A DNA stretch of 64,000 nt. Source: an uncultured delta proteobacterium. Its GTDB lineage: Bacteria > Desulfobacterota > Binatia > UBA9968. How positions within the stretch are numbered: the first letter of the stretch is position 1; each line of letters starts with the position of its first letter. The stretch covers positions 28,021 to 92,020 of the forward strand of contig CAVUVW010000004.1 of the NCBI GenBank assembly GCA_963745035.1, in the 5' to 3' direction. The translations under genes were made by a program, and so were the position numbers. Positions 3,307 to 38,199 of the stretch are shown here, one piece after another. The notes beneath the pieces are model-generated. The model was not told where the DNA came from and did no database searches. It was given only the letters and a program-made list of their open reading frames with translations.

Positions 3307-3436
3307 TCTTTCGATGGTTGGACCTGCTGAGATTTGCGCCTTGCTCTTTGTGACGCTCGGGTGGCTCAAGAGCCTCGGATCCTTCGCCTAGCGTATGTGT
3401 GACACGACGAGATGTTCAGGAGGAAGGAATAACAAA

Positions 3437-4814: not shown

Positions 4815-4841
4815 GAACAACCACAGGACGGAGAAACGATC

Positions 4842-20700: not shown

Positions 20701-21708
20701 TTGAAGCGAGCGCTCAGTCGCATGCTGATGAATGCTGGAGAGATGCTTTGTCCTTTGTGCTCTTTCGCACTGAGTTTTCTTATTCCGTCGGTCGCGCAAG
20801 CAGAGCCCATTCGATTGGCGTATAGCTCGATCAGCGGCGCCATGGCGCCTTTATGGGTGGCGCAGGACTATGGGTATTTTCGCCGCCACGGAGTGGATCT
20901 TCAGCTGCTCTACATCGGCGGCGGCTCGGTGGCGACTCAAGCGCTCCTCGGCGGCGATGTGCAGTTCGTTCGGCTCGGCGCGAACGCCGTCGTTCAGGCG
21001 TCGCTTAGAGGCGCCAATCTCAAAATGATCGGCAATACGATCAACACGCTGGTATTTTCATTGATGGCCCGCCCCGAAGTCCAAACCGCCAAGGATCTCA
21101 AAGGTAGAAAAATCGGTTTGACACGCCTCGGCGGCTCGACGGATTTTGCTTTGGATCTCGCGCTCAAAAAATGGGGACTGCGGCGCGGCTCCGACGTTGC
21201 GGTTCTCCAGACCGGCGGCATGCCGCAATTGCTCGGGGCGATCACCGGCGGAGTCGTCGACGCCGGCGTGGTCTCGCCGCCGACCAACTTGTCGGCGGCC
21301 AAGCTCGGTCTCAAGGAACTTGTCGACTTCGGCGAAATCGGCATTGTCTATCCCAACTCGCCGCTCGCCACATCTCAAGTGTACTTGGAAAAAAACCGGG
21401 CTACCGCTCTGAGGGTCTTGCGCGCCTACTGCGAAGGCATTCATCGGGTGAGAACGGACAAAGAGGGAACGATGAAGGTCCTGGCGAGATACACGAAGGT
21501 GAATGACCCGGAGATTCTCGCCGAGCTTTACCGAATCTACGGCGTCAAGTATCTCGAGCCGATTCCGAGAGTGAGACTGGATGCCGTCGATGAAGTGTTG
21601 CGCTCCGAGGTGAAAGCGGGGGCGGGTGTCAAGGCGAGTGATTTCATTGACAACAGCCTGGTGGCCGAGCTCGAGCAGCAGGGATTGTTTCAGACGTTGT
21701 ACCGATAG
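20701..21708 (+). CDS. NMT1/SsuA-type substrate-binding protein #3 (paralog of #1)
   Basis: RLAYSSISGAMAPLWVAQ, LKGRKIGLTRLGGST, FIDNSLV. Confidence 0.88.
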   Translation: MKRALSRMLMNAGEMLCPLCSFALSFLIPSVAQAEPIRLAYSSISGAMAPLWVAQDYGYFRRHGVDLQLLYIGGGSVATQALLGGDVQFVRLGANAVVQASLRGANLKMIGNTINTLVFSLMARPEVQTAKDLKGRKIGLTRLGGSTDFALDLALKKWGLRRGSDVAVLQTGGMPQLLGAITGGVVDAGVVSPPTNLSAAKLGLKELVDFGEIGIVYPNSPLATSQVYLEKNRATALRVLRAYCEGIHRVRTDKEGTMKVLARYTKVNDPEILAELYRIYGVKYLEPIPRVRLDAVDEVLRSEVKAGAGVKASDFIDNSLVAELEQQGLFQTLYR

Positions 21709-21714
21709 GAGGAA

Positions 21715-23145
21715 GTGATGGCTTATAAAGATCTCCGGGAGTGGCTGGATCAGGTCAACCAGTTAGGCGAGCTCAAAACCGTGGAGGGCGCGGACTGGGA
21801 TCTGGAGATCGGCGCGATCATCGAGATGGCGCGCAAGGAAGCCAAGGTCGCTCCTTGTATACTGTTCGATTCAATTAAAGGCTTCGATAAGGGTTTGCGG
21901 CTCGTGGCCGGACAGCTTAACTCGATCAAACGGGTCGCGCTCACCTGCGGCATGCCGACCGACATGGCGACCATGGATTTGGTCCGAGCCATGCGCACGA
22001 AGATCAAGGAAATGAAGCCGATTCCGCCGCGCGAGGTCAAAGAAGGGCCTTTCCTGGAGAATGTTTGGGAGGAAAAAGACGTCGACGTCATGCGTTTCCC
22101 GACGCCGCGCTACAACATCGGCGACGGCGGACGCTACATCGGCACCGGGCATCTGACGATCACCCGGGATCCGGAAGAAGGCTGGCTCAACATCGGCACT
22201 TACCGAGTGATGATTCACGATGAGAAGTCCGTCGGGCTGTATATCTCTCCGGGACGGCACGCGCGCATTCAAATGGAAAAGTATTTTGCCCAGAAGCGCC
22301 CTATGCCCGTGGCGCTCTCGTTGGGGCACGATCCGCTTCTCTTCATGGCGTCGGCCTTTGAAGTGCCGTACGGGCTCTCGGAATACGATTTCGCCGGCGG
22401 CCTCAAAGGCGCGCCGATCGAGGTGGTCAAACTGGCGCGAACGGGTCTTCAAGTGCCGGCGACCGCGGAGGTTGTCATCGAGGGCGAATGTTTGCCGGGC
22501 GATCAAAAGACCGAAGGGCCGTTCGGCGAGTGGACCGGATACTACGCGAGTCACGTCCGAGAAGAGCCCATCATCCGCATCCGCCGTATGTATTGTCGCA
22601 ACGATCCGATCATGGCGGGCGCGCCGCCGAGCCGGCCGCCGACGGAGGCAACTTTCTATAAAAGTTTTTGGCGGTCGGCCATGGTTTGGGAAGAGCTCGA
22701 GCGCGCCGGCGTGCCCGATGTCGTCGGGGTTTACTGCCCGCCTGAAGGCAATACGCGGCTGCTCACTGTAGTCGCCATCCGCCAGCGTTATCCGGGCCAC
22801 GCGCGCCAGGCGGGATTGATCGCGTCTCAATGCCACGCTGCCGCGTATCTCGGGCGTTTCACCGTTGTGGTCGACGAGGACATCGACCCAACCGACATGA
22901 AGGATGTGTGGTGGGCGATGACGACCCGCTGCGATCCGTCGGAAGACATCGAAATTCTGCGCCGCTGCTGGAGCGGGCCGTTGGATCCGATCGTTCAAAG
23001 AGGCAAAAAGGGATTCAACTCCCGAGCTGTCATCGACGCTTGTCGACCGTACGAATGGATCAAAGATTTCCCCGCTTCGGTGATCGTACCGCCGGACCTG
23101 GCGCAGCAGGTGAGACAAAAGTGGGGCAAACAAATTTTGTCGTAA
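21715..23145 (+). CDS. UbiD-family decarboxylase #2
   Basis: DLREWL, DGGRYIGT, NIGTYR, EGPFGEWTGYY, VVDEDIDP, TRCDP, IDACRP. Confidence 0.93.
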   Translation: MMAYKDLREWLDQVNQLGELKTVEGADWDLEIGAIIEMARKEAKVAPCILFDSIKGFDKGLRLVAGQLNSIKRVALTCGMPTDMATMDLVRAMRTKIKEMKPIPPREVKEGPFLENVWEEKDVDVMRFPTPRYNIGDGGRYIGTGHLTITRDPEEGWLNIGTYRVMIHDEKSVGLYISPGRHARIQMEKYFAQKRPMPVALSLGHDPLLFMASAFEVPYGLSEYDFAGGLKGAPIEVVKLARTGLQVPATAEVVIEGECLPGDQKTEGPFGEWTGYYASHVREEPIIRIRRMYCRNDPIMAGAPPSRPPTEATFYKSFWRSAMVWEELERAGVPDVVGVYCPPEGNTRLLTVVAIRQRYPGHARQAGLIASQCHAAAYLGRFTVVVDEDIDPTDMKDVWWAMTTRCDPSEDIEILRRCWSGPLDPIVQRGKKGFNSRAVIDACRPYEWIKDFPASVIVPPDLAQQVRQKWGKQILS

Positions 23146-23173: not shown

Positions 23174-23773
23174 ATGATTCGTTACGATTGCTTCGAATGG
23201 TTGGCGCCGCTTATGACGGACCAGCTCGTGGTCACGTCCCTCAGCGGACAAAGAGTGGAGTGGGGACATCTGTCGAAGCGTGAGGCGGACCTGAACCTCG
23301 GTTCCATGGGCAATGCATTGGCCGTAGGAATCGGCCTTGCGCTCGCGTTGCCGCATCGCAAAGTCTTCGTGTTCGAGTCGGATGGCAGCATCCTGCTCTC
23401 GCTCTTCAATCTCCCCACACTGGCGAACCTCAATCCGCCCAACATGGCCGTGTTCGTGTTCGACAATCAGGCTTACAGCGGCACGCGGATCAGCTATCCG
23501 AGCGCGACGGCGGGGAAAACGGATCTTGCGGCGGTGGCCAAAGGGTCCGGCATCGAGCATGCCGTGACCGTGTCGGAGCTGGAGGATTTCAAGAGGGAAG
23601 CTACCGGAGCGATGAACCAGACCGGCTTGCGCTTCGTCGTCTGCAAAATCGAAGAGAGCCTCGGTCACCGGAAGATCACCCGAAGCGACATCGATTTGTT
23701 GGAGACCAAGTACCGCTTCGTGCGTTATCTCGAGCGCACCGAAGGCAAAGCCATTTTCCAAGGACGGGGATAA
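23174..23773 (+). CDS. ComE-like ThDP-dependent decarboxylase beta subunit (pair 1)
   Basis: GSMG, ESDGS...FDN ThDP motif, TDLAAVAKGSGI. Confidence 0.85.
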   Translation: MIRYDCFEWLAPLMTDQLVVTSLSGQRVEWGHLSKREADLNLGSMGNALAVGIGLALALPHRKVFVFESDGSILLSLFNLPTLANLNPPNMAVFVFDNQAYSGTRISYPSATAGKTDLAAVAKGSGIEHAVTVSELEDFKREATGAMNQTGLRFVVCKIEESLGHRKITRSDIDLLETKYRFVRYLERTEGKAIFQGRG

Positions 23774-23800
23774 ACACTCGATAGTACGATTTGTAATCTT

Positions 23801-24307
23801 ATGAAAGCCGAGCTCGCCAGCAGAACCGTCGCGGGACTGAAAGCCGCGGGGATAGATTTCGTCAGCTACATGCCCGAGACGAGGTTGAGCGAAATTCTCC
23901 CGCTGATGAAGGCAGACGGGTCTTTTACTCTGGTGCCGGTGGCCAGTGAAGCCGAGGCGGTGGGTATCGCCGCGGGGGCCTCCCTGGGAGGAAAACGCTC
24001 GGCTGTATACATGGAAGGAACCGGTCTTTTCGTTTCGACTTACAACCTGCTCACGATCGGCGAGCGCTACGGCGTGCCGATGCTGTTGCTGGTGGCTTAC
24101 GTTGGAAGTTTCGAAGACCAGCGCAACTCCTATCTGTTTTCCCACTACGGCAACAAGACCAAGGGCATACTCGATACTCTTGGCATTCAATACCTGACCG
24201 TCGCTGCCGCCGACGAGCTCGAACCGCGGATCAAAGACGCGGTCAGAATGATGCACGCCCTGAAGCTGCCCGTGGCTTTGCTGTTCACGGGAGAATTCAC
24301 CGAATAG
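23801..24307 (+). CDS. ComD-like ThDP-dependent decarboxylase alpha subunit (pair 1)
   Basis: LKAAGIDFVSYMP, SEAEAVGIAAGA, PVALL; 168-aa PYR domain. Confidence 0.85.
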   Translation: MKAELASRTVAGLKAAGIDFVSYMPETRLSEILPLMKADGSFTLVPVASEAEAVGIAAGASLGGKRSAVYMEGTGLFVSTYNLLTIGERYGVPMLLLVAYVGSFEDQRNSYLFSHYGNKTKGILDTLGIQYLTVAAADELEPRIKDAVRMMHALKLPVALLFTGEFTE

Positions 24308-24333
24308 CTATCCGTTTAGAAAGGTCCATCAAA

Positions 24334-25305
24334 ATGAAATTGCGCAGCTCGATCCTGCACGCTGTTTTTCTTATCGCAGGGACTTTAAGTTTGGCCAGCG
24401 TCGAGGCGAAAACGATCTATATCGCCGTTTCCAATCCCGACATGTCGTTCTTGAGCGGCGGTGTTGCTAAGTTTCAAGGCTACTTCAAGGACGAGGGACT
24501 GGACGTCGAAGTTTTACAGATGAACGCCAACGTCTCGGTGGCGGCCCTAGCGGCGGGCAACGTCGATTACAATCTGATCCTGCAGTCTGTGGTCACGGCA
24601 AATCTGCGCGGCTTGCCGCTCAAGATCGTCGGCATTCTGATCGAACGGCCCAATCACGTCGTGGTCGTCCATCCGAGCATTCAGAAATTCGCCGATCTAA
24701 AAAATAAAAAAATTGCGATCAGCTCATTTGGCTCTCTGGTGGATATCCTGGCGCGACTCACGGCCGCCCATTTCCAGCTCGATCCGCGCAGGGAAGTGGA
24801 GTATGTCGCGGCGGGGAGCAGCTCGGCGCGCGTCGCGCAACTGCAGGCCGGCGTGGTGCAGGCGGCCTTCGTGACTCCTCCCGGCAATCTGCGGGCGGAA
24901 GCTTCGGGCTTCAAAACTTTGCTGCGGGTCCGAGACTTGTTCCCTTTTCCGGTAAACGGCATCGGCGTTACCGAGCAGAAGCTCAAGACCAACCGGGACG
25001 AAGTGAAGAAAATCGTCCGGGCGCTGCTGCGCGCCAACCGTTTTATCGTCAATAATCCAAAGGGCGCGGTTAAAATCCTCTCCGATTGGGGCAGGACCAA
25101 ACCCGAGGTAGCCGAGGACGCTTACAATGACAACGCGAAAAATTATAGCCGCAATCTGCTGGTATCGAGAGCGACTTTGGAGAACGTCATCGAGAGCACG
25201 CGTTTGAACGTGGAGTTGAAAAGAAGCGTCTCGGTCGACGAGATCTTCGACTTTAGCTTGGTCCGCGAGGTGCTTAAGGAAATGGGAGAATCGCCGAATC
25301 CATGA
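24334..25305 (+). CDS. NMT1/SsuA-type substrate-binding protein #4
   Basis: Signal peptide, GYFKDEGLDVE, DLKNKKIAISSFGS, FDFSLVREV. Confidence 0.88.
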   Translation: MKLRSSILHAVFLIAGTLSLASVEAKTIYIAVSNPDMSFLSGGVAKFQGYFKDEGLDVEVLQMNANVSVAALAAGNVDYNLILQSVVTANLRGLPLKIVGILIERPNHVVVVHPSIQKFADLKNKKIAISSFGSLVDILARLTAAHFQLDPRREVEYVAAGSSSARVAQLQAGVVQAAFVTPPGNLRAEASGFKTLLRVRDLFPFPVNGIGVTEQKLKTNRDEVKKIVRALLRANRFIVNNPKGAVKILSDWGRTKPEVAEDAYNDNAKNYSRNLLVSRATLENVIESTRLNVELKRSVSVDEIFDFSLVREVLKEMGESPNP

Positions 25306-26291
25306 ACATGCGAATGAGCAACTTGACTCAAATCATCTTTCTGGCCGTCTTTCTGCTCTGTGCTTCGACGGCGGAGCTGCCGGCGCAGGCGCGCCCCGAA
25401 AAGATCGTCTTCTCGATTCCCAGCCGGAGCATCGCTGCTATCGATCTTTACGTCGCCAAGGAGCGGGGCTTCTTTCGCGATGAAGGCCTCGACGTCGATA
25501 TCGTGCAGATCCGCGGCAATGTGGCGGTGGCGGCGGCGTTGAGCGGCCAGGTGCAGGCAACCAACGGGGTTGGAACGGTTATTCGCGCGCTGGAGCGGAG
25601 CGAGATTCCCCTCAAAGTTCTCACGGTAAGCCTCAAAAGAAATCTGTTCTGGCTTGTCGCGCGAAAAGAAATTACCTCGATTGCCCAGCTTAAAGGAAAG
25701 ATTTTGGGCACGACGACCTTCGGCGGTTCACAGCATACGGCCGCGACCCGGATCATACGAAAGGGCGGCGTCGATCCGGATAAGGATCTTACGGTGGTGG
25801 TAGGAGGAGATGTGCCGGCGCAGCTACAAAGTTTGATTAGTGGAGTTATCGACGTCGCCGCGCTTTCCCCGCCTACGGTGATCTTGGCGCGTGACAAGTT
25901 TCAAATGAATGTGCTCGGGTCGGCCATGGAAGATCTCTCGAACCTCCAGAACGGCACCGCCGTAACCGAGAAATATCTGCGCGAGAACAGAGACCTGTTG
26001 AAGCGGATTCTGCGCGCTCGCGCCAAGGCGAACCGTTATTTCTGGGAAAACGAGCGAGGCACAAGCGAAGTCCTGGCGAAATTTCAGAACGTCGATCTTG
26101 CCGTCGCGCGCGAATCTTATCGATTGGCCAAACCCGCTTTCACCGCGGATGGAATTCCTTCGCCCAAAGAGATCGACGAGTTTCTCAAGGCCGATGCCGA
26201 GCTGCTGAAATTGAAGGAACCGATCGCCGCGGCAAAGATCTTCGACTTCTCGCTGCAGCGTGAAGTGAATCAGGAGCTGGGCATGAAATAG
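25302..26291 (+). CDS. NMT1/SsuA-type substrate-binding protein #5
   Basis: Signal peptide, GFFRDEGLDV, LKGKILG, FDFSLQREV. Confidence 0.88.
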   Translation: MNMRMSNLTQIIFLAVFLLCASTAELPAQARPEKIVFSIPSRSIAAIDLYVAKERGFFRDEGLDVDIVQIRGNVAVAAALSGQVQATNGVGTVIRALERSEIPLKVLTVSLKRNLFWLVARKEITSIAQLKGKILGTTTFGGSQHTAATRIIRKGGVDPDKDLTVVVGGDVPAQLQSLISGVIDVAALSPPTVILARDKFQMNVLGSAMEDLSNLQNGTAVTEKYLRENRDLLKRILRARAKANRYFWENERGTSEVLAKFQNVDLAVARESYRLAKPAFTADGIPSPKEIDEFLKADAELLKLKEPIAAAKIFDFSLQREVNQELGMK

Positions 26292-26322
26292 TGCGCTTCT
26301 GGCGGTGACGATTCGGTGAATT

Positions 26323-26829
26323 ATGGAAGCGGAATTGGCGCAAAGACTCGTCGGCGGCCTCAAGCAAGCCGGTATCGATCTCGTGACTTACTTGCCGGAA
26401 ACCCGGCTCAGCCAGATCTTACCGCTTTTGCGCGGCGATCCATCGTTTACCTTGGTGCCCGTCGCCAGCGAATCGGAGGCGGTCACGATCGGCGCGGGCG
26501 CGGCGTTGGCGGGCAAGCAAGTCGCGATCTATATGGAATGCACTGGGCTCTATGTCTCATGCTACACGCTCGTGTCCATCGCCCGGCGCTACGGTGTCCC
26601 TTTGCTGCTGGTGGTCGCCTATCTCGGCAGTATGGCCGATCAGCGCAACAATTCGGTTTATGCCGTATCGGGAACCTACGTCGAGCCGTTGTTGGAAGCG
26701 TTGCAGATTCAATTCCAGATCATCAAGAGCGGCGAACGGCTCGAAGCTGATATCCAGGACGCGGTGCGGCACATGCATGCGCTCAAGCTGCCCGTGGCGC
26801 TGGTGTTTACCGGAGACTTCACCGAATGA
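26323..26829 (+). CDS. ComD-like alpha subunit (pair 2)
   Basis: LKQAGIDLVTYLPE, SESEAVTIGAGA; paralog of 23801. Confidence 0.85.
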   Translation: MEAELAQRLVGGLKQAGIDLVTYLPETRLSQILPLLRGDPSFTLVPVASESEAVTIGAGAALAGKQVAIYMECTGLYVSCYTLVSIARRYGVPLLLVVAYLGSMADQRNNSVYAVSGTYVEPLLEALQIQFQIIKSGERLEADIQDAVRHMHALKLPVALVFTGDFTE

Positions 26830-27425
26830 TCCGCTATGATTGCTTGAAGCTGCTGGCCCCGCGGATTACCGACCAACTCGTCGTGACTTCGCTCAGCGGG
26901 CAAAAGATCGAGTGGGCGAGTCTGTCGCAGCACCCGGGCAATCTCCTGGTCGGCACCATGGGAACGGCGCTCGGCGTGGGCATTGGCCTGGCCATCGGTT
27001 TGCCACGGCGCAAAGTCATCGTCTTGGAATCCGACGGCAGCGTGCTGCTCTCGCTGTTCAATCTGGCGACCTTGGCCAATCTCGATCCGAAGAACTTGAT
27101 CGCCTTCGTCTTCGATAACCAGGTATACAGCGGCACGCGCATCAGCGAGCCGACCGCCACAGCGGGTAAAACCGATCTGGCGATGATGGCGCGCGGAGCG
27201 GGCATCGAGCAAGCAACGACGGTGCGCGATTTGCCGACGTTTGAACAGGTAATGAACGCGGCACTCGATGGAAATCAGCTTAAATTTATCGTTTGCAAGG
27301 TCGAAGAGAGCGTTTCCCACAGGGAAATATTGCGTACGGATTTGGATCCCATCGAAAACAAATATCAGTTTGTCCGCTATCTCGAACGGAGCGAAGGCAA
27401 ACCGATCTTCCGCAGCCGCGGCTGA
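26826..27425 (+). CDS. ComE-like beta subunit (pair 2)
   Basis: GTMG, ESDGS...FDN; ATGA overlap with the alpha gene. Confidence 0.85.
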   Translation: MIRYDCLKLLAPRITDQLVVTSLSGQKIEWASLSQHPGNLLVGTMGTALGVGIGLAIGLPRRKVIVLESDGSVLLSLFNLATLANLDPKNLIAFVFDNQVYSGTRISEPTATAGKTDLAMMARGAGIEQATTVRDLPTFEQVMNAALDGNQLKFIVCKVEESVSHREILRTDLDPIENKYQFVRYLERSEGKPIFRSRG

Positions 27426-27459
27426 TCGAGCGAAGAAAGAAAGGAACCGAGGAACTTCA

Positions 27460-28218
27460 ATGAATGAGAACAATCAGGCCGGCGAGTACGTCAACGAGCA
27501 CTACCGAAAGGTCGCCGCGCGATGGCGCGCGCGGGTCACCGATTCGCCCTTCATGCAGCAATTGAGGGCCGGCACCCTCCCGATGGAGAAACTTCGGACA
27601 TTTTTCAAGAACTGGGGTTCCTACACGATTGAGATCAACACGGTGGAGGCGGCTTCGTACCACAAACATATTTCGTTCTTTCGCAAGCATCGCGATCTCA
27701 TGGCGCGCATGGCCGAAAAGCTCGCCGACGAGTTGATTCACCCCAAGCCGCCTGGGCATGTGCACGTGGTCGTGGAAACCGCCAAGGCTTTGGGCATCAC
27801 CGAAGATGAGATTTTCATGGCGCCAATGCTCGCTGAGTTTCGCGCCAAGCTCGATTTCAAGAGATCGCTTTTGTGGGAAGGGACGATGGCGGAGTTCTAC
27901 GCCGCGGGCGCGACGGAAGAACAGACAGGCTACTGGTCCGCGGATTTCTACAAGGCGCTGACCACCCATTACGGTCTCTCGCGCGAGCAGGCGGTGTACT
28001 TTTCCACCCACGAAGAAGCCGATCTCAAGGAACACGACGGCGTGATGGGCCACGGGAGTTTCCGCCGCCTGGTTCTCAAGACGCTCTTGGAGGACGGTAT
28101 GGCACAAGCGCGGCCGGGCTACACTTTGGAGTATTGCGGCTTGACCGCGGTCGACTTGCATGGCGTCTGCTTACAAGCCGCTTTCGACGCTGCCTCCAAG
28201 GATTCACGGGGAAAGTAG
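27460..28218 (+). CDS. TenA/PqqC/CADD (heme-oxygenase-like diiron) family protein
   Basis: PF...L.AG.L, ADE...PGH, ATEE, YFSTHEEADLKEH candidate diiron ligands. Confidence 0.8.
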   Translation: MNENNQAGEYVNEHYRKVAARWRARVTDSPFMQQLRAGTLPMEKLRTFFKNWGSYTIEINTVEAASYHKHISFFRKHRDLMARMAEKLADELIHPKPPGHVHVVVETAKALGITEDEIFMAPMLAEFRAKLDFKRSLLWEGTMAEFYAAGATEEQTGYWSADFYKALTTHYGLSREQAVYFSTHEEADLKEHDGVMGHGSFRRLVLKTLLEDGMAQARPGYTLEYCGLTAVDLHGVCLQAAFDAASKDSRGK

Positions 28219-28222
28219 AGAA

Positions 28223-30487
28223 GTGAAAGCACACGTCAGCCAAGCGCGTTATAAGACGGCGCGAAAAGTCATCGGCACGCCGGTGCAGCGGCTCGAAGGT
28301 CCGGAGAAAGTGTCGGGGCGAGCGACCTATGCCACCGACGTGAGCCTTCCAGGCATGCTCTGGTGCAAAGTCCTGCGCAGCCCGATCTCTTACGGGCGCA
28401 TCAAGCGGATCGACGTGAGCCGCGCGCTTGAATTGCCCGGCGTCCATGCGATCGCCACCGGCGAAGACGTGCAGGGGCTGCTGATCGGCAGAAAAATCTA
28501 CGACATGCCGATCCTCGCCGACGGCGTGGTACGCTTCATCGGCGAGAAAGTCGCCGCGGTGGCGGCGGAGAGCGAAGAGCGATCGCCGAAGAAGCGATCG
28601 AGCTGATCGATGTCGAGTACGAGGAAATGACGCCGCTGCTCGATCCACTCAAGGCGGTCCAGCCTGACGCGCCGCTACTCCATCCCAACGTGCAGGGCTA
28701 TCGCGGGCTGCTCCATCCGATCGATGCACCGACCAATGTTTTCGTGCACATGAACTGGAAAAAGGACGACGTCGAAACGGGCTTTCGCGAGTCCGATGTT
28801 ATCGTCGAGAACACGTTTACGACCAAACCGGTGCATCAAGCCTATATCGAGCCCCACGCTTGCGTTGTGCAAGCGCAAGAAAATGGCAATGGCGACATCT
28901 GGGCCTGTTCTAAAGTTCCCTTTGCGCTGCGCGAGCAAGTGGCGAACGCCTTCGGCAAAGGCCTGGAAAATTTTATCGTTCATCCGTGCTACATCGGTGG
29001 CTGCTTCGGCGGCAAGGGCGACTTCATGGACGTACCGGTTTGCTATCTGCTCTCGCTCAAGAGCGGCAGGCCGGTAAAAATGGTGATGGATTATTCCGAG
29101 GAGTTCGTCGCCGGCAATCCGCGCCACGCTGCCATCGTGCAGGTCAAAACCGGCGTCAAAAAAGACGGCCGGATTGTCGCCCATCAGATGAACTATGTCT
29201 TCGACAGCGGCGCCTACGGTGCGTTCAAGCCGCAGGGCTATTTGGTCGGTCCCAAGGAAGCCGCCGGCCCGTACAATATTCCCAACGTCTTCATCGAAGA
29301 GAAGATCGTCTACACGAACAAAATACCGTGCGGCCACATGCGCGCGCCGGGCGATCCGCAGGGCTTTTTTGCCAACGAGTCGCAGATGGACTTGATCGCG
29401 CGCCGTTTGGGCATGGACCCCGTTGCGTTCAGAAAAAAGAATCTCATGCATGACGGCGACCTCTCGCCCATCGGCCATGCGGTGCCGCATATCAAGAGCG
29501 ACGAGATTCTCGATGGCGCAGTCGAAAGCTCCGGTTATCGCCGGCCGAAGCGAAAACATACCGGCCGCGGCATCGGCGATTGCCCAGTGGCTGCCGCTCG
29601 GCGGCGAGTGCCACGCGTTCGTAAAGATCGATGAGCGAGGAGCAGTCACGGTAGCCACCGCGATGCTCGATCAGGGCGCGGGCACGCACACGGCCATGCG
29701 CCTGGTTGCGGCAGAGGAGTTGAAGATTCCGCTCGAGAAAACCGGCATTGCAACGCTCGACACCAGCGACGTCGGGCCGGACACGGGAATCGGCGCCAGC
29801 CGCGGCACGCGAATTTTCGGCAACGCCACCCGCTTGGCGGCGGCGCATGCGCGACGAGCAACTGCTTGCCGCGGCAAGCGAGGTGCTCGGAGTCGGTCAA
29901 GAAGAACTTTCGCTGTCGGGTGACGGCGAGAGTAGCGGCTTTGTCTGGACGGAGTGTGAGTTACGCCGACCTTGCGCGCAGCAATGGCTCGGCCATTCGC
30001 GGCGCTGGCTTCTACAAGAATTTCGAGTCGGGGCCCGAAGCGGCGCTCTGCGTGCAGGTGGCCGAAGTGGATGTCGATCCGGAAACCGGCCAGGTGAAGC
30101 TTAGCCATTTCACCAGCGCGCACAGCACCGGCACCGTGTTGAATCCGCTCATGCATCAAGGCCAGATCGACGGCGGCGTCGTGATGGGTATGGGATACGC
30201 GCTGATGGAAGGCGTGATGATCGACGGCGGCAGTGTGGTCACGACCAACTTCGGCGAAAACAAGATTCCCGTCGATTTGCGACATTCCACCTTTGAAAAC
30301 CGTGATTCAAGAATTCCCCGTGGGCAACGGTCCCTACGGCGGCATGAGCATCGGCGAGCCGCCGGTCGTTCCTACGGCTGCCGCGATCGCCAACGCCGTG
30401 CAAGATGCCGTCGGGGCGCGGATTTACGATTTGCCGATCACGGCGGAGAAGGTGCTGCGCGCGCTCGGCAGCGAGAAGACGCGGTAG
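28223..30487 (+). CDS. Xanthine dehydrogenase-family molybdopterin-binding large subunit, multiply frameshifted
   Basis: KVSGRATY, AYIEPH, GGCFGGKG, MRAPG, DQGAG, QGQIDGG, GPYG...IGEP. Confidence 0.88.
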
Positions 30488-30588
30488 TAATGGAGTATTG
30501 GGAGCTCTCGATATCGATGGACCTAATCGTTGGCTCGGCATCCCCGTTGCGACGGATTATTTTACCTGCTAATTCAATTGGACCAACT

Positions 30589-31097
30589 ATGAAAGACGAA
30601 CTGGCGAAACGATTGGTTCAAGGCCTGAAAGACGCCGGCATCGATTTCGTCACCTATTTGCCGGAGACGCGCTTGAGCCAGATCTTGCCGTTGATCCGCG
30701 ACGATCCGGAAATGGAGTTGATCGCGGCAGCGAACGAGCAGGAGGCGGTGACGATCGCCGCGGGCGCGACCCTTGGCGGCAAGCAGGCGGCCGTTTACAT
30801 GGAAAACACCGGCATCTACGTATCGAGCTACAGCTTGCTGACCGATCGGCAAGCAACTCGGCGTGCCGATCCTGCTCGTGGTCGGCTATCTGGGCGGCGT
30901 GCCCGACCTGCGCAACAGCTTTCTTTACGCCACCATCGGCAAGCACACGATTCCCACCCTCGACGGGCTGGGCATCGAATACATGCTTCTCAAACGACGG
31001 CGACAAGCTCGAAATCAAGATCGGCGACGCGATGCGGGCGGCCAATGCGCTGCGCGCGCCCTACGCGCTGCTGTTCGCCGGGGAGTTTTCCGAATGA
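30589..31097 (+). CDS. ComD-like alpha subunit (pair 3), frameshifted
   Basis: LKDAGIDFVTYLPETRL, NEQEAVTIAAGA, MENTG. Confidence 0.8.
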
Positions 31098-31703
31098 TCC
31101 GCTCACGAATGTCTTCGAATGGCTCGCCGGGCAAGATGAGCAGATCAATTGGTCGTCACTTCGCAGAGCGGCCAGCGCATCGAATGGTCGCACTTGTCGA
31201 AGCACGAAGGCAATTTGCTGGTCGGCATGATGGGCTGCGCCATCGGCGTGGCGACCGGATTGGCTTTGGCTTTGCCGCACCGCAAGGTGATCGCGCTCGA
31301 CTCCGACGGCAGCGTGCTGCTGTCGCTGTTCAATCTCGCCGACCTTGGGCAATTTGCGTCCGAAAAATCTGGTCGTTTACGTCTTCGACAACGGCGTTTA
31401 CAGCGGCAGCCGCATCAGTTATCCGACGGCGACCGCCGGCAACACGGATCTGGCCGCGATGGCGCGCGGCGCGGGCATCGCCAATGCGCACACGATCGAC
31501 GACGTCGAAGATTTCAAGAACAAAGGCGATGCGCGGCGCTGGCGCGCGACGAGCTGGCTTTCTTTGTCTGCAAAGTCGAAGAGAGCTTGCTGCACCGGGA
31601 GATTCCCCGGCCCAACACCGATCTCGCCGAAAACAAATATACTTTTGTGCGGTATCTGGAGCGCACGGAAGAAAAAACGATGCCGTTCGTCGGGCGCGGC
31701 TAA
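31094..31703 (+). CDS. ComE-like beta subunit (pair 3), frameshifted
   Basis: GMMG, DSDGS, FDNGVYSG, ENKYTFVRYLERTE. Confidence 0.8.
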
Positions 31704-31726: not shown

Positions 31727-32768
31727 GTGGGATATGTGAAGAACTAGTTTTGATCGCGTGCGGTCCTTGCGCTCGGCGTTGCGGCTGCGCAGCCTACGGC
31801 TCAGGCGCAGGATTTCTACAAAGACAAAACGCTTGACGATCATCGTCGGCTATTCGCCCGGCGGTTCCTTCGATCTCTACGCGCGCGTGATCGCGCGTTA
31901 CATCGGCCGCTATCTGCCGGGCAATCCGACGCGCATCGTGGAAAACATGACGGGCGCGGGCGGGCTGATCGCCGCCAACCATCTGTACAACCGCGGTCAA
32001 GCCGGACGGCTTGACGATCGGCGCATGGGCGTCGCCGTTGGTGTTGCAGCACATCATGGGCAATGAGGCGGCGCAGTTCGACGGTCGCAAGTTCGGCTAT
32101 CTCGGCATCCCCAGCCCGTACGACACGGTCTGCACGTTCAATCAGCAAAGCGGCATTACCAAGATGGACGATTGGATCAACGCCAAGCGGCCGCAGAAAA
32201 TTTCCGCCATCGGTCCGGGCACGAGCACGTCGGATATTCCCAAGCTGCTCAAAGCGGCGCTGAATCTGCCGATGGACGTGATCGACGGCTACAAAGGCGG
32301 CGCGGACGCGCGCCTGGCGGTCGAGTCGGGCGAAGTCGACGGCTACTGCGGCTCGTGGGGCACGGTGGAAACGGTGTGGCGCGGCGCCTTCGAAAGCGAA
32401 GAAAGTTCATCCGGTGTTGCAGGCGTCGCTGAAATCGCATCCCAAATACAAGCAATATCCGCTCGCGATCAGCTACGCCAAGACCGAAGAAGCCCGCGAG
32501 TTGCTCACGGTCGCCGACAACGCCCACGGCGCGCAATTTCCTTTCACCGTGCCGCCGGGCATGGCCAAGGAGCGGCTGGAGATGTTGCAGCAGGCTTTCA
32601 TCAAGACCCTTAAGGATCCCGATCTCATCGCCGAAGCAAAGCAAGTCGCAGCTGGACATCGACCCGGTCGACGGTCCGACGGTGACGAAGACTCTGGCGG
32701 GTCTCTACGACTTCAAGCCGGCGACCGTGGCACGGCTGAAGGAAATTCTCCTGGCGAAAAAGAGATAA
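31727..32768 (+). CDS. Bug/TctC tripartite tricarboxylate transporter receptor, frameshifted, orphan
   Basis: FYKDK, IVGYSPGGSFDLYAR, ENMTGAGG, GYKGG...LAVESGEVDG. Confidence 0.85.
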
Positions 32769-32927
32769 ACGCGTAGCTCCGATCCCGAGTCCGGCATTGA
32801 GCCAGCCAAGCACGGCCATGCCGAATCGCGCATTCTAACTTGACACTCCCGGCGGTTTCCCGATAGACACTCACACAGAAGATTTTGCTCCCGATCGACA
32901 CTCTTCGACGAAGGGAGGCCGGCGAAC

Positions 32928-33889
32928 ATGGCGGAAATCGTAATCGGCATCGGCACATCCCACAGCCCGCAGTTGAGCATCCGCGCAAAGGACTGGGAAT
33001 ACCTTCTCAAAAAGGACGAGACCGATCCGCGGCTCGACTATCCAGGCCTTGCTGCAAAAAGGCCAAACCGGGCCTCGATAAACGAGCTGACGCCGGAGAA
33101 ATTTCGCGAGCGCGATCAGGCTTGCCAGACGGCGATCCGAACCTTGGGCGAGGCGCTGCAAGCGGCGCGCGCCGATCTGGTGGTGATTTTCGGCGACGAT
33201 CAGCAGGAGCAGTTTCACGACGACAACATGCCGACGTTCGCGATCTATCACGGCAAGTCGGTGCCGGTCGTAAAGGACAACAAGCATCAATCCGTCGGGG
33301 TGGAAAGACGCGGAGCGGCGCGGTTGGGCCGAAACCGCGGCGGAGTACGACACCGCGCAGGAGCTAGCCAATCATCTGATTCGCTCGCTCGTCGATGCCG
33401 AGTTCGACATCGCGCGCTGCAACAAGCTGCGCGAAGAAATCGGCGTCGGCCATGCCTTCAGCTTTCTCTACCGGCGCATCTTGCCGGGCGGCAAGCTGCC
33501 CATGGTGCCGGTGATGGTCAACACTTATTATCCCCCCAATCAGCCGACGCCGAAGCGCTGCTACGCTTTCGGCCAGGCGGTGCGCAACGCGATCGAATCG
33601 TGGGACAGCGACAAGCGAGTGGCGCTCATGGCTTCGGGCGGGCTGAGCCACGTGGTGATCGATGAAGAAATCGACGCCATGGTCATCGACGGCTGAAGAA
33701 CAAGAAGCCGGAAGTCGTTGTTTCAGTTTGCCGCGGGAAAAACTGCGCGGCGGCACATCGGAAATCCTCAACTGGGTGGCGTTGGCCGGTGCCATGGAAA
33801 AGCGCGAACTCAAGTATTTCGAATACGTCACGACCTACCGTTCTCCGGCGGCGACCGGGTGCGGGATGGGGTTTGCGTACTGGACGTAG
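32928..33889 (+). CDS. DesZ-like (3-O-methylgallate dioxygenase, LigB superfamily) extradiol ring-cleavage dioxygenase, frameshifted
   Basis: MAEIVIGIGTSH, GDDQ.E, HAFSFLYRRI, NTYYPPNQPTPKRC, ASGGLSH.VIDEEID, GTSE..NW, YRS.A.TG..MGF. Confidence 0.85.
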
Positions 33890-33927
33890 AGTCGGCGGCA
33901 GTTTCGCCGCGCGTGACAGGATTTTTC

Positions 33928-34592
33928 ATGGCAAGAGAAGCGATCATCGAACGGCTGGCGAAGCTCGATACCTGCGCAGTTTCGGATGCACTGGATAGCT
34001 TGGATCTGAAAGGCGCGACTTGGGGCGTGCGGCCACAGTGGCAGTGCCCGCGGATCGTCGGCCGGGCGGTGACGATGAAGATCAAGCCGGCGGGATTCGC
34101 AGCAACCAAAGCAACATCTCGGCACCGCGCCCATCGAAGCGGCGCAGTCCGGCGATATCATCGTCATCGACAACGGCGGCAAGCTGGAGTTTTCCTGCTG
34201 GGGCGGTTTGCTGGCGCTCTCGGCGAAGTTGAAAGGCTTGAGCGGTGTGGTGATCGACGGCGCGTCGCGCGACATCGACGAAGCGCGCGAGCTGGAATTT
34301 CCCGTTTTTGCGCGCGGCGCAGTGCCGATGACCGCGCGTGGGCGGATTGTCCAAGAATCCTTCAATCAGGAAATTCAATTTGCCGGCGTGCAATGCCGAT
34401 CCCGGAGATCTGGTGATCGCGGACGGCAGCGGCGTGGTGATTATTCCCAAAGAGAAAGAAGCCGAGGTGGTGACCGCGGCGGAGACGATTTACGCCAAAG
34501 AACAGGAAATGGCCGCGGGCATCCGCAAAGGCTTTTCCGGCCTAGAGATGCTCGAAAAGCTCGGCTATGAGCAGATGCTGAACAAAAAATAG
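33928..34592 (+). CDS. RraA/HMG-CHA aldolase (LigK-like), frameshifted
   Basis: VSDALD, GRAVT, CWGG, VIDGASRD, GD...AD.SGV. Confidence 0.85.
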
Positions 34593-34628
34593 CAAAGGCA
34601 AGTAATTTAGATTGCCATAAAAGAAACG

Positions 34629-35912
34629 ATGCTGACACGTGAAGAAAATCTGCTTCTGACCGAAGTGAGCCCCGGCACGGCGTGCGGCGAGCTCTTGCGG
34701 AGATACTGGCATCCGGTTGCCGCCGCCGCGGAATTGACCGACGAGAAGCCGATCAAAGCCGTGAAGATTCTCAATGAGGAGCTGGTCGTCTATCGAAATC
34801 GCAGAGGCGAGTACGGCCTGGTAGGCGAGCATTGCCCGCACCGTTTGGCTTCGTTGGCGTACGGGCGGGTCGATGACGAAGGGATTCGCTGTCCGTATCA
34901 CGGCTGGAAGTTCGACCGCAGCGGGCGCTGTCTCGAACAGCCGGCGGAGCCTGCTGAAAGCACGTTCAAAGACCGCATCCGCCACGTCGCCTATCCGGTG
35001 CAGTATTTAGGCGGGCTGATCTATGCCTATCTAGGTCCCGCGCCCGCGCCGCTCTTGCCGCGCTGGGACGTGTTGGTTTGGGAGCACGGGCGGCGCTGGA
35101 TCGTCAAAGAATCGATCATCGACTGTAACTGGCTGCAGCCGATGGAAAATTCCGTGGACCCGTCGCATCTTTATTGGCTCCACGGCGATACCGAGCGCTT
35201 TGTGCCGTCGGTAAAAACCTACGCCGAGAGTTACGAGTTTATTCGTTTCGAATACGGCATCAGAAAACGTCGAACGACCTTGCCGCTGGCAACCGGAGGG
35301 AATCCGGCCGTGGACGATCATCCGTTGCTCTTCCCGACAGTGTTGCGGCACGTGGCGCCGTTTAACGAGGGCAGCGGGCACCGCCATAATTTACAGATTC
35401 GCGTGCCGGTGGACGATCATCACACCCAGGTGTTTCGGGTGAATTTTTTGCCGATGGATTCGGAGCGGACGCCTGCAGATGCGCCGGTGCCGCTGCGCTT
35501 CGTGCAACTCAAAACCGGTCCGCGCGAGTACAAGATGAACATGATTCCCGCGCAGGACTCGATGGCATGGGAAACTCAGGGAACCCGCACCGACCGCACC
35601 CAGGAGCATCTGGGCGTGGGCGACGAAGGCATCATCGAACTCAGAAAACTTTTGCGCGAGCAGATCGAGCGCGTGCAACGGGGCCAGGAGCCGATGGGAT
35701 TGATACGCGATCCGCAGGAAAATCAACTGATTGACCTCCACGTGATCAACGAGCGCATCGGCCTGTTCGCTCCCGAGTTCTGGGATTCAGAACCGCAGTC
35801 GGGCTGTGGGCATTTAACTTCTCCGCTCTTTCCTGCACCTTTTACATCCCGTAATTGCTCGCGTTCGCACGCGACCAAATCATTCTCTTGCATGCTGACC
35901 GTTAAGACATAA
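34629..35912 (+). CDS. Rieske oxygenase alpha subunit #3 (LigXa-like); extreme C-terminus uncertain
   Basis: MLTREEN...GELLRRYW, CPHR...CPYHGW, ENSVDPSHLYWLH, QDSMAWETQG. Confidence 0.92.
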   Translation: MLTREENLLLTEVSPGTACGELLRRYWHPVAAAAELTDEKPIKAVKILNEELVVYRNRRGEYGLVGEHCPHRLASLAYGRVDDEGIRCPYHGWKFDRSGRCLEQPAEPAESTFKDRIRHVAYPVQYLGGLIYAYLGPAPAPLLPRWDVLVWEHGRRWIVKESIIDCNWLQPMENSVDPSHLYWLHGDTERFVPSVKTYAESYEFIRFEYGIRKRRTTLPLATGGNPAVDDHPLLFPTVLRHVAPFNEGSGHRHNLQIRVPVDDHHTQVFRVNFLPMDSERTPADAPVPLRFVQLKTGPREYKMNMIPAQDSMAWETQGTRTDRTQEHLGVGDEGIIELRKLLREQIERVQRGQEPMGLIRDPQENQLIDLHVINERIGLFAPEFWDSEPQSGCGHLTSPLFPAPFTSRNCSRSHATKSFSCMLTVKT

Positions 35913-35927
35913 AAAGTTCATGTCTTA
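35903..35927. promoter_or_regulatory. Operator-like palindrome upstream of Rieske #4
   Basis: TAAGACAT-N9-ATGTCTTA perfect 8-bp inverted repeat in an AT-rich tract. Confidence 0.45.
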
Positions 35928-36037
35928 TCTAAATACCTGATTTATTTGATGTTTTTTGCCGAAAAGCCCTTGCGCTGCGCAAGCCTCTTCGACTAATATC
36001 TGGCAGGCTTGAATGAAGACGTCACGAGGGTGAACGC

Positions 36038-37204
36038 ATGCTGACGCGCGAAGAAAACGAAATGCTGACGAGGGTGGGGCCGAGTACTCCAGCCGGTGAT
36101 TTGCTGCGGCGCTACTGGTTTCCGGTCGGGGTTGCGAGCGAGCTCACCGAAGGAGAATCCAACCCAGATTGTCCGCATTCTCGGCGAAACGCTGGTACTC
36201 TTCCGCGACAAATCGGGGAATGTCGGATTGATCGATGATCGCTGCGCGCATCGCGGCGCGTCGCTTTGCTACGGCAGGGTCGAAAAGCGCGGCATCGCGT
36301 GCCCGTATCACGGCTGGCTTTATGATACCAAGGGCAACTGCCTGGAGACTCCGGCCGAGCCGGCAAGCAGCAAATTCCATCTCACAGTTAAACAGAAAGC
36401 CTATCCGGTGCAGAAATTGGTCGGGCTCTATTGGACCTACATGGGGCCGAGCCGGCGCCGCTGATCACCAACTTCGATATCTGGTTTCGCAAAGATGGAC
36501 GGCGCAAAATTTTTATCCAGCCCCAGCTCGACTGCAATTGGTTTCAGGCGATGGAAAACTCCGTTGATCCGGCGCACTTGCAAATTCTTCATCAAGAGAC
36601 CGCCGGGCGCGGGCGCGCCGTGGCGGATAGCACGCGCGGCCTCACCGACGACGTCGCGAATTTCGATTTCTACGAAGTTTCCTACGGCATCATGAAGCGG
36701 CGCACCTATAAAAACGGCATGATCGACGAGCACCCGCTGATTTTCCCCAACATCTTGCGCCAGGGAAACGTCGGCCAGATCCGCGTGCCGATGGACGATA
36801 CCCACACCAAAGTTTACTTCGTCAGGTTCTTTCCCAGCGAGGACGGTGAGATCATCGAAAACGACGAGCCACCGGCGGAATATCTCGCGCCGTACAAAAA
36901 CCCACCCGATGCGCTGCATCCCTATACGAAATTCCGTATGGACTGCGTGCAGGCGCAGGATCACATGGCCTGGGAAACCCAGGGTCCGATCGCAGATAGG
37001 ACGCGCGAGCGCCTGGCGACCACCGACCGCGGTATCATCATGCTGCGCGAAGTCATGTTCCGCGAGATGAAAAAATTGCGCGCGGGGCAGGATCCGATGG
37101 GCGTGATCCGCGATCCCGGCAAGAATCCATTCATCGATACGCACTTGCTGGAATCGATCGAGCAAGGGGTCATGGATCGCGCACCCTACGCCGTCAATCA
37201 GTAA
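36038..37204 (+). CDS. Rieske oxygenase alpha subunit #4 (LigXa-like), frameshifted
   Basis: MLTREEN, CAHRG...CPYHGW, ENSVDPAHLQILH, QDHMAWETQG. Confidence 0.9.
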
Positions 37205-37376
37205 CGAATCCTCTGGCGTCTTCCGTTTAGAGGTTCGCCGGTCGTCTCTCTTTGGAGACCGCGCCTGTCCCGCTCGCAGATTTTCGCGTCATCAAGGTTT
37301 CTAGGAAAATCTTCCCTTGCCTTGGCGGAAGGCGGCGAATATGATCGCCGCGCATCCAGCAAAACGAGGAAAAATC

Positions 37377-38111: not shown

Positions 38112-38199
38112 CCGAGTCCTCATAGCAGCTTTTTGCGATTCACGTCGCGGCCAAGGACTTCAGAGGAATTTAATACCCCCATATTCGCTAACTCGCCCG

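Follow-up and report, generated by a model that had tools for sequence, protein, structure and literature searches.

What does one catabolic gene island do with three copies of the same two-gene enzyme? The question is raised by a 64,000-nucleotide stretch of contig CAVUVW010000004.1 from an uncultured delta proteobacterium of the Binatia, a soil bacterium (hereafter, the window), in which positions 23174-31703 of the + strand hold three alpha/beta gene pairs for a split thiamine diphosphate (ThDP) enzyme, as seen in the open reading frames (ORFs) and translations of the window. Judged by sequence, these pairs are neither the sulfopyruvate decarboxylase ComDE nor phosphonopyruvate decarboxylase (Ppd); they are an uncharacterised variant of the two-subunit ThDP enzymes. 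By analogy with recently described relatives, we put the chance at about even (roughly 0.5) that they are decarboxylases of heterocyclic or aryl alpha-imino or alpha-oxo acids, feeding molybdenum (Mo) hydroxylases.

A sequence-only reading of this DNA had described pair 1 in beta-alpha order and pairs 2 and 3 in alpha-beta order with ATGA overlaps, and the ORFs, translations and Pfam matches bear this out: beta1 lies ahead of alpha1 with a spacer of 27 nt, and alpha2 and alpha3 run into their respective betas through ATGA overlaps at 26826-26829 and 31094-31097 (coordinates and domain scores in Table 1). Both intact betas exceed the Pfam cut-off of TPP_enzyme_C (PF02775, 21.9 bits) and both intact alphas that of TPP_enzyme_N (PF02776, 26.8 bits), with the Pyr and PP domains placed in two small proteins whose genes stand side by side, as in the split-ThDP architecture. 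Identity amounts to 61% between alpha1 and alpha2 and to 64% between beta1 and beta2. The motifs named by the same reading were all found in the translations: SDG in each of the three betas (FESDGS, LESDGS and LDSDGS), a common beta tail of the form E(T/N)KYxFVRYLER(T/S)E, and Y(M/L)PETRLS together with YME(G/C/N)TG in each of the three alphas. The tail is indeed shared by the betas, yet it is no mark of these pairs—most other intact paralogues of the genome have it as well (ENKYLFVRYIEKSE, ENKYHFIRYVEESEG, others), and the alignment to the ComE model TIGR03846 runs through it.

Scores against the NCBIfam equivalog models set the pairs apart from both named enzymes. The alphas reach 93.4 (alpha1) and 87.5 bits (alpha2) with the ComD model TIGR03845, below its cut-off of 147.95 bits; the betas reach 95.7 (beta1) and 98.4 bits (beta2) with the ComE model, whose cut-off is 221.5 bits; and the Ppd model TIGR03297 gives 60.7-85.4 bits for the window pairs against a cut-off of 312.5 bits. 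Across the whole genome, none of 23 ComE-like matches passes the ComE cut-off. The window clade received a support of 100/100 in a tree built from 17 rows of concatenated alpha and beta, where it joined four other paralogues of its own genome and a plasmid-borne pair of Rhizobium tumorigenes (93/94). The Leisingera ComDE pair grouped with a Priestia pair, located beside a gene of the phosphoenolpyruvate (PEP) mutase family, and with a Deinococcus pair (95/92). The phylogeny that the sequence-only reading had called for thus puts the window clade in another branch than ComDE, for which the sole reference is this Leisingera pair, named by PGAP and not experimentally proven. That reading had also noted that the window has no partner genes for coenzyme M or phosphonate metabolism; genome-wide (92.6% complete), we detected no ComA (PF02679, 0 matches), no PEP mutase over cut-off (best 148.5 vs 319.55 bits) and no Xsc over cut-off (best 337.6 vs 676.4 bits), while ComB, ComC and SuyAB/sulfolactate genes were not searched for.

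Against this background, it is highly improbable that the pairs are true sulfopyruvate or phosphonopyruvate decarboxylases for which NMT1/SsuA-like proteins import sulfonates. The label 'sulfopyruvate decarboxylase subunit beta' that JGI attaches to close homologues, the NMT1-family binding proteins that flank the pairs and the sulfatase gene in the window (Table 1) would all fit such a function. Every score, however, falls far under the equivalog cut-offs, no match in the genome exceeds that of ComE, of the partner enzymes named above ComA has no match and PEP mutase and Xsc have none over cut-off, and the clade stands apart from the PGAP-named ComDE. The transport link, moreover, carries little weight against the genomic background, since 394 NMT1-like ORFs make such an adjacency only ~2-fold more frequent than chance. 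These ORFs were collected with a profile of the five NMT1/THI5-like proteins of the window and amount to ~1 per 19 kb, an extreme expansion; with ~16 found near pairs against 7 expected, NMT1-like adjacency was considered as a meaningful signal and not built on.

The family is far larger than the three pairs. The source genome (G000) contains ~12 such pairs or fusions at 10 loci, and phmmer scores delimit a clade around the window pairs, at least 145 (alpha) and at least 250 (beta) inside and at most 100 and at most 167, respectively, outside. The stem branch of the clade has a length of 1.42 and a support of 100/100, in a tree that takes in one row (L017) from genome G005, on which no claim depends. 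Five subtypes can be told apart within the clade, the pair-3 type being the one common to other families of the order. A match at E <= 1e-20 was obtained in 41 of the 41 genomes searched (the source genome and 40 relatives from its genus and order), and three same-genus genomes (G004, G006 and G015) carry three betas each, spaced as in the window. Searching 1.84 billion cluster representatives with alpha2 returned 1105 matches at E <= 1e-3, 17 of them at E <= 1e-30, and species-representative genomes contained 71 distinct loci of the clade. Most of these come from metagenome-assembled genomes (MAGs) labelled Candidatus Binatia, delta proteobacterium or Syntrophobacteraceae, with a minority labelled Verrucomicrobiia, Udaeobacter, Eisenbacteria, Acidiferrales or Chloroflexota; the clade is largely confined to Binatia-type MAGs. 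Public annotation calls close homologues 'thiamine pyrophosphate-dependent enzyme' or 'sulfopyruvate decarboxylase subunit beta', and a search of the ESM Atlas retrieved generic TPP_enzyme_N clusters only. Fused forms of the family also exist in the source genome, one in beta-alpha order (C13:69006-70220, 404 aa) and one in alpha-beta order (C13:1544245-1545117, a 290-aa ORF with an odd C-terminus).

In another family of the order, a single pair of the pair-3 type sits in a cassette composed of a small gene, an M20 deacylase-like gene, alpha, beta and a RidA-like gene (L035 9068-12926, L036 7656-10907, L037 9803-12462 and L038 7667-10321). The small protein has 72-84 aa, the M20 protein is ArgE/DapE-like and the RidA-like protein, of the imine deaminase family, has 170 aa; two of the four loci have a called gene for it, an opposite-strand ORF being called at that place in the other two. 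A possible resemblance of the small gene to GatC was considered and dropped, as it has no Pfam or NCBIfam match, and the gene is left unnamed.

The residues expected of a ThDP enzyme are conserved. In 18 of 18 subfamily betas, S69-D70-G71-S72, D97-N98 and H165-R166 are invariant, together with E177, K179, Y180, F182, R184, Y185, E187 and R188 of the tail; in 18 of 18 subfamily alphas, the same holds for P25-E26, R28-L29-S30, E50, E52, Y70, E72 and G75. The catalytic Glu, which had been thought to be kept, is kept: E50 of alpha2 aligns with the Glu of RhiE and belongs to this invariant set. From general knowledge of ThDP enzymes, we take E50 to be the cofactor-activating Glu and D70, D97 and N98 to be Mg ligands. 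Because all paralogues of the genome have E50, and most of the intact ones the tail, outside the clade as well, both are features of the family as a whole. What distinguishes the clade is that Ser replaces the leading Gly of GDG in beta and that alpha has a Glu at position 72, where RhiE and the rows of the ComDE branch have Gln (MQN); the SDG of beta and the ME-x-(T/S)-G of alpha are kept throughout it. In the alpha model, Glu72 ends the strand 67-72, just ahead of a loop, presumably the site that holds active-site residues such as His70 in benzoylformate decarboxylase. An alpha with ME is likewise coupled to a beta with S/T-DG in the paralogue C13a, the Rhizobium pair and the enzyme AzcB/AzcC, whereas each of the five MQ-type paralogues (a fusion and four pairs) has GDG, as does RhiEF. 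Along with the scores under the cut-offs and the separate clade, these retained catalytic and metal-binding residues sustain the earlier proposal of a subfamily distinct from ComDE and Ppd.

Structure prediction with AlphaFold gave models of beta2 and alpha2 with pLDDT values of 83.1 and 81.7, respectively. Compared with the PDB, the beta2 model matched RhiF (E 4.7e-10, TMq 0.71) and, with the highest TMq (0.78), AzcC; the alpha2 model matched AzcB best (E 1.7e-12, TMq 0.82-0.86), followed by RhiE (E 7.6e-11, TMq 0.84). Matches of lower rank comprised 2-hydroxyacyl-CoA lyases, benzaldehyde lyase and formolase. By homology with RhiEF and LumKL, we infer that alpha and beta form a complex that would bind ThDP, alpha providing the Pyr domain with the cofactor-activating Glu and beta the PP domain with the Mg/diphosphate site.

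Among the characterised two-subunit enzymes, the best sequence match in the PDB is RhiE/RhiF (beta2 E 2.2e-9, alpha2 E 2.9e-6), the phosphonopyruvate decarboxylase of Bacillus subtilis ATCC 6633 (PDB 9iz3/9iz4; PMC12141560, available part). It shares the two-subunit architecture, the fold and the aligned catalytic Glu with the window pairs, and differs from them by MQNSG in RhiE and GDG in RhiF and by working with PEP mutase, of which the source genome has none over cut-off. ComD/ComE is alike in being a split alpha/beta ThDP decarboxylase with overlapping genes and in having the beta tail covered by its model, and differs by the Gln of Leisingera ComD where the window alphas have Glu, as well as by GDG instead of SDG. 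A third relative, AzcB/AzcC, is described by the title of PDB entries 9u8q/9u8r/9u8s as a thiamine pyrophosphate (TPP)-dependent alpha-imino acid decarboxylase from a Streptomyces, and is probably biosynthetic rather than catabolic, going by its name and source. Its subunits are split into an alpha of 168-170 aa and a beta of 194 aa, AzcB is the top structural match of the alpha model, MENSG of AzcB corresponds to ME-x-TG and DTDG of AzcC to SDG, DG being preceded by a residue that bears a hydroxyl. These common ME and (S/T)DG motifs and the top fold match favour a kinship of branch with AzcB/AzcC, although neither subunit scores better with AzcB/AzcC than with RhiE/RhiF. A check of whether paralogues of the source genome lie nearer to AzcC than to RhiF gave the opposite result (C13a 41.7 vs 54.9, C18 35.3 vs 63.6).

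The closest plasmid homologue of cultured bacteria, with 41% identity to beta2, is a pair on pRt1078 of Rhizobium tumorigenes (WP_111222304/WP_111222303; L110 8504-9609 in our set). It carries MENSG and TDG motifs, falls in the same branch of the tree as the window clade, though in a separate group, and is accompanied by genes for an amidohydrolase, a Rieske dioxygenase, a Mo-binding protein and a 2Fe-2S protein. Its alpha is clearly AzcB-like, with 76 bits as against 39 for RhiE. The best 120 matches of this alpha were all at least 83% identical, with a few named members in Actinobacteria and Alphaproteobacteria (Subtercola, Azospirillum, Methylorubrum, Komagataeibacter and Xanthobacteraceae) and no Nocardioides-named match among these 120; such high conservation over so wide a spread suggests that a fixed module has moved horizontally.

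A possible functional parallel comes from lumichrome catabolism in Nocardioides simplex. According to the available part of the report by Sinha et al. (2025, PMC12746152), LumK and LumL form a TPP-dependent 1:1 complex of 20 + 23 kDa that decarboxylates a quinoxaline carboxylic acid, after which the xanthine-oxidase-like LumJ hydroxylates the product and a Rieske dioxygenase, an extradiol dioxygenase, a hydrolase, a hydratase and a retro-aldolase follow; its authors state there that two-subunit TPP decarboxylases had previously been known just from the rhizocticin and coenzyme M pathways. The likeness to the window, as far as that part of the source describes the system, extends to two small subunits (20/23 kDa vs 168/199 aa), an annotation as TPP-binding, a catabolic setting and the same surrounding enzyme classes, the Mo gene standing immediately ahead of alpha3. 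On the same basis, LumJ differs in being a 140-kDa protein that has iron-sulfur (FeS) and FAD domains besides that for Mo; the window encodes just the large subunit of a Mo protein, and the contig has no FeS gene. The window also lacks the P450 and the pyrimidine-ring hydrolases of the Lum system, so its substrate is unlikely to be lumichrome.

The genomic neighbourhood of the clade has recurrent members. Over the 71 loci of the clade, the commonest neighbours were NMT1-like genes (46), the Mo large subunit (34), UbiD (27), TctC-like (23), DHDPS-like (21) and Rieske (21) genes, and LigB and aldolase-like genes also recur beside the clade. One recurrent order reads Mo subunit, alpha, beta, TctC, with Mo subunit, alpha and beta directly adjacent in 19 loci; another reads Rieske, DHDPS-like, alpha, binding protein, beta. 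In the source genome itself, a MoCoBD_1 gene lies within 7 kb of six of the 10 paralogue loci, against an expected 0.7, and none of 20,000 random placements reached six. The most consistent partner is a Mo large subunit of the xanthine dehydrogenase family encoded directly upstream of alpha. A complex prediction for this subunit (G006 orthologue, 12-row alignment) with beta3 scored 0.01, the mark being 0.32, and counts neither for nor against an association.

Taken together, the Mo partner, the heterocyclic substrate of LumK/LumL and the imino acids of AzcB/AzcC suggest a step before ring opening. In the mechanism that we propose as the best supported, and hold at the even odds given at the outset, the pairs would non-oxidatively decarboxylate acids that bear their carboxyl group at the carbon of a C=N or C=O bond, as the LumKL-type set of enzymes, AzcB/AzcC and the RidA-like neighbour in the sister families would suggest. 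Candidate substrates are heteroaromatic or cyclic alpha-imino acids and aryl alpha-oxo acids, in the setting of an island for aromatic and heterocycle catabolism. The product would be either an aldehyde or a C-H of the ring adjacent to its nitrogen, which the xanthine-dehydrogenase-family Mo subunit encoded directly upstream of alpha3 could oxidise, in an order of chemistry that parallels LumK/LumL followed by LumJ; the Rieske oxygenases, the LigB-type dioxygenase and the aldolase-like enzymes may then open and cleave the ring. The sequence-only reading had instead proposed 2-oxo acids released by ring-cleavage or aldolase steps as substrates; nothing was found to tie the enzymes to such acids, the most consistent partner being the Mo subunit.

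Several observations weigh against this proposal. AzcB/AzcC are distant (~20-24% identity; phmmer E 4e-5 for alpha and 2.3e-4 for beta) and score below RhiE/RhiF, beta2 reaching 24.3 bits with AzcC vs 40.7 with RhiF and alpha2 26.9 bits with AzcB vs 30.6 with RhiE; they are known from the PDB title and the aligned stretches, a literature search having found no paper. LumK/LumL, on the available part of the source, are likened by description and enzyme classes rather than by sequence. No Fer2_2 gene occurs on the contig, and the activity of a Mo subunit lacking its FeS/FAD partner there is itself uncertain. The random-placement null takes no account of catabolic genes being clustered into islands, and the 71 loci are not independent, several sharing a contig or genus. 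The UbiD enzymes of the island could already cover its aromatic-acid decarboxylations. Finally, many relatives outside the clade have genes for aldehyde dehydrogenases and aminotransferases as neighbours, a setting in line with ordinary decarboxylation of 2-oxo acids.

The rival explanation that deserves most attention, and that comes near to the idea of the sequence-only reading, is that the pairs are ordinary decarboxylases of 2-oxo acids—arylglyoxylates such as benzoylformate analogues, or aliphatic acids from aldolase or ring-fission steps—and that the neighbouring Mo enzyme, as an aldehyde oxidoreductase, oxidises the resulting aldehyde. We regard it as a serious possibility, less probable than the proposal above. 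Decarboxylation of 2-oxo acids is the classical chemistry of the family (ComDE and RhiEF; PMC12141560, available part), and plasmid relatives adjoin genes for aldehyde or succinate-semialdehyde dehydrogenases and aminotransferases. The Mo subunit itself scores 343 bits with the model of the glyceraldehyde dehydrogenase alpha subunit and 264 bits with that of PaoC, both below cut-off; the window has an FMN-dependent alpha-hydroxy-acid dehydrogenase fragment, and the island DHDPS-like, RraA-like and class II aldolase-like genes. On the other hand, the replacement of the MQN-type Gln by an invariant Glu and of GDG by SDG follows AzcB/AzcC, the clade joins the AzcB-like Rhizobium pair and not ComDE, and its fixed partner is a subunit of the xanthine dehydrogenase family, not an NAD-dependent aldehyde dehydrogenase. 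A departure from decarboxylation altogether, towards carboligation or the C-C cleavage of aromatic-derived diketones or alpha-hydroxyketones, appears improbable. Two-domain ThDP enzymes do include lyases and carboligases, some of which are among the lower-rank fold matches, and residues of the active-site loop are altered; yet no CoA-handling partner is conserved beside the pairs, and all characterised two-subunit members that we encountered are decarboxylases, as far as the available parts of the sources tell (PMC12141560, PMC12746152).

Gene order and gene numbers bear on how the subunits may be paired. The order UbiD, beta1, alpha1 occurs in another genome too (L041), and the pair-1 order of the window is therefore real. 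In three further relatives (G015, L045 and G006), an extra alpha precedes the beta1 orthologue and the alpha1 orthologue then follows it, so that these clusters have four alpha and three beta genes; in G015 and G006, the extra alpha overlaps the beta by 4 nt. Evidently, as far as these gene arrangements tell, beta1 can do without an upstream alpha. Another subtype has a gene for a binding protein between alpha and beta, a hint that alpha and beta partners may not be strictly fixed. Because three relatives have four alphas for three betas, and the window beta1 has lost its upstream overlapping alpha, it is conceivable that neighbouring alphas and betas pair up variously and so extend the range of substrates. 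A more speculative and rather doubtful extension would make the ~12 pairs of the source genome, and the five subtypes of the clade, parts of a multi-paralogue toolkit of the Binatia, in which each pair decarboxylates a different N-heterocyclic or aromatic acid, beside a ring nitrogen or at an alpha-imino or alpha-oxo carbon, passes the product to a Mo subunit of its own that often lacks an FeS partner, and may exchange alpha and beta.

These considerations bear important implications for the annotation of soil genomes. As far as the available sources on LumKL and AzcBC (2025-2026) go, the two-subunit ThDP fold is not, as was long believed, limited to the pathways of coenzyme M and phosphonates, and the clade described here is abundant in Binatia MAGs from soil and groundwater, tripled in one island and tied to Mo hydroxylases. 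Should its members act on heterocyclic or imino acids, they would point to an initial step in the degradation of soil nitrogen heterocycles that is widespread and as yet unannotated, the 'sulfopyruvate decarboxylase' labels in public annotation would need correction, and new ThDP catalysts would be on offer for decarboxylating heteroaromatic acids. If the toolkit existed, it would amount to a general route of decarboxylation followed by hydroxylation for soil heterocycles, of which LumKL-LumJ is the sole characterised case. If the pairs are ordinary 2-oxo-acid decarboxylases instead, the expansion of paralogues would be routine.

Whether all three pairs are functional depends on pair 3, which had been counted as a pair like the others: all three are recognisable, and the third is not open as assembled. 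Relative to intact orthologues of the same-genus genomes G006, G015 and G004, it has nine extra single bases and no missing one, at 30842 and 30995 in alpha3 and at 31102, 31116, 31129, 31142, 31334, 31526 and 31527 in beta3. In tblastn, the alpha3 match spans frames 1, 2 and 3 in turn and the beta3 match contains an in-frame stop, the frame switches of beta3 being visible by eye as well. The neighbours share this pattern, with five window-only insertion events in the gene of the Mo large subunit (28576, 29573, 29855, 29931 and 30271) and four in the TctC-like gene downstream of pair 3; alignment to orthologues revealed none in pair 2 or in the haem-oxygenase-like gene. A scan of coding frames located patches of frame switching at 12.9-15.9, 28.2-34.6, 42-44.5 and 50-53 kb, 16-28 kb being clean. 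The patch checked in detail consists of window-only single-base insertions relative to relatives and short-read contigs. In short-read contigs of close strains from four independent runs, bases are absent at or beside several of the window-only insertions (29577, 29856, 29927, 30266 and 31831, mostly in the Mo-subunit and TctC-like genes); within pair 3 this applies to just one place (31339), in a contig of a single run.

The assembly seems to carry local insertion errors; the nine frameshifts of pair 3 look like such insertions, and the organism itself probably has an intact pair. We read the frameshifts as error rather than decay because of the insertion-only pattern and the conserved protein sequence in every frame piece. 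That pair 3 and its neighbours over 28.2-34.6 kb are real pseudogenes in this strain, leaving two functional pairs only, is unlikely, even though the deposited sequence does hold these frameshifting insertions and the patches are local, next to a clean region. In pair 3 and the two neighbouring genes, all window-only changes are insertions, save for 3-4 nt gaps that are in frame or at alignment ends; there are no frameshifting deletions and no in-frame stops within segments read in the correct frame; amino-acid conservation is high within each frame piece; at or next to several of the positions, bases are absent from the contigs of close strains; and comparable patches occur elsewhere in the window.

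Table 1. The three pairs and other features of the window (positions count from its first letter; scores in bits).
Feature	Position	Strand	Remarks
Sulfatase gene	1321-2838		upstream of island
Two DUF1254/DUF1214 genes	3395-5834		upstream of island
LysR regulator gene	10763-11641	-	island start
Second UbiD-family gene	16955-18349		
Third NMT1/THI5-like binding protein	20701-21708	+	Pfam
UbiD-family decarboxylase	21715-23145	+	directly upstream of beta1
beta1, PP-domain subunit	23174-23773	+	199 aa; SDG at residues 69-71; PF02775 58.1
alpha1, Pyr-domain subunit	23801-24307	+	168 aa; YMPETRLS, YMEGTG; PF02776 30.0
NMT1/THI5-like solute-binding proteins	24334-25305, 25302-26291	+	between pairs 1 and 2; Pfam
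alpha2	26323-26829	+	168 aa; YLPETRLS, YMECTG; PF02776 36.2
beta2	26826-27425	+	199 aa; LESDGS ... FDNQ; PF02775 54.4
Haem-oxygenase-like / TenA-PqqC-like protein	27460-28218	+	between beta2 and Mo subunit; PF14518 32.9, PF03070 31.3
Mo large subunit, xanthine dehydrogenase/aldehyde oxidoreductase family	28223-30487	+	directly upstream of alpha3; approximate start
alpha3	30589-31097	+	YMENTG; broken as assembled (two single-base insertions)
beta3	31094-31703	+	LDSDGS; broken as assembled (7 insertions); intact orthologues of 200 aa in G004, G006 and G015
TctC-like, LigB-type extradiol dioxygenase and RraA/CHA-aldolase-like genes	31758-34596	+	downstream of pair 3; all frameshifted; intact G006 orthologues
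Two Rieske/LigXa-like oxygenase genes and class II aldolase-like gene	34629-38118	+	L033 orthologues with Rieske + LigXa_C
FMN-dependent alpha-hydroxy-acid dehydrogenase fragment	42132-42818		

Broken genes of the window were read through intact orthologues in G006 and G004, which are colinear with it at ~80% identity. The intact orthologue of the Mo subunit has 752 aa and the domains Ald_Xan_dh_C, MoCoBD_1 and MoCoBD_2. Across the genome, ~36 Mo large-subunit genes stand against some 22-25 Fer2_2 matches, many large subunits having no FeS/FAD partner nearby. No link to the pairs was found for the sulfatase or the DUF1254/DUF1214 genes upstream of the island. The haem-oxygenase-like gene is kept at the same place in G004, G006 and G015. 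The class II aldolase-like protein, scored through its L033 orthologue, reaches 189 bits with the 3,4-dihydroxyphthalate decarboxylase model NF053537, whose cut-off is 200. Additional + strand genes of the island encode more Rieske/LigXa-like oxygenases, a DHDPS-like protein and parts of ABC transporters. The two UbiD paralogues, both on the + strand, lie 3.4 kb apart, both score under the specific equivalog cut-offs, and each is preceded by an NMT1-like gene.

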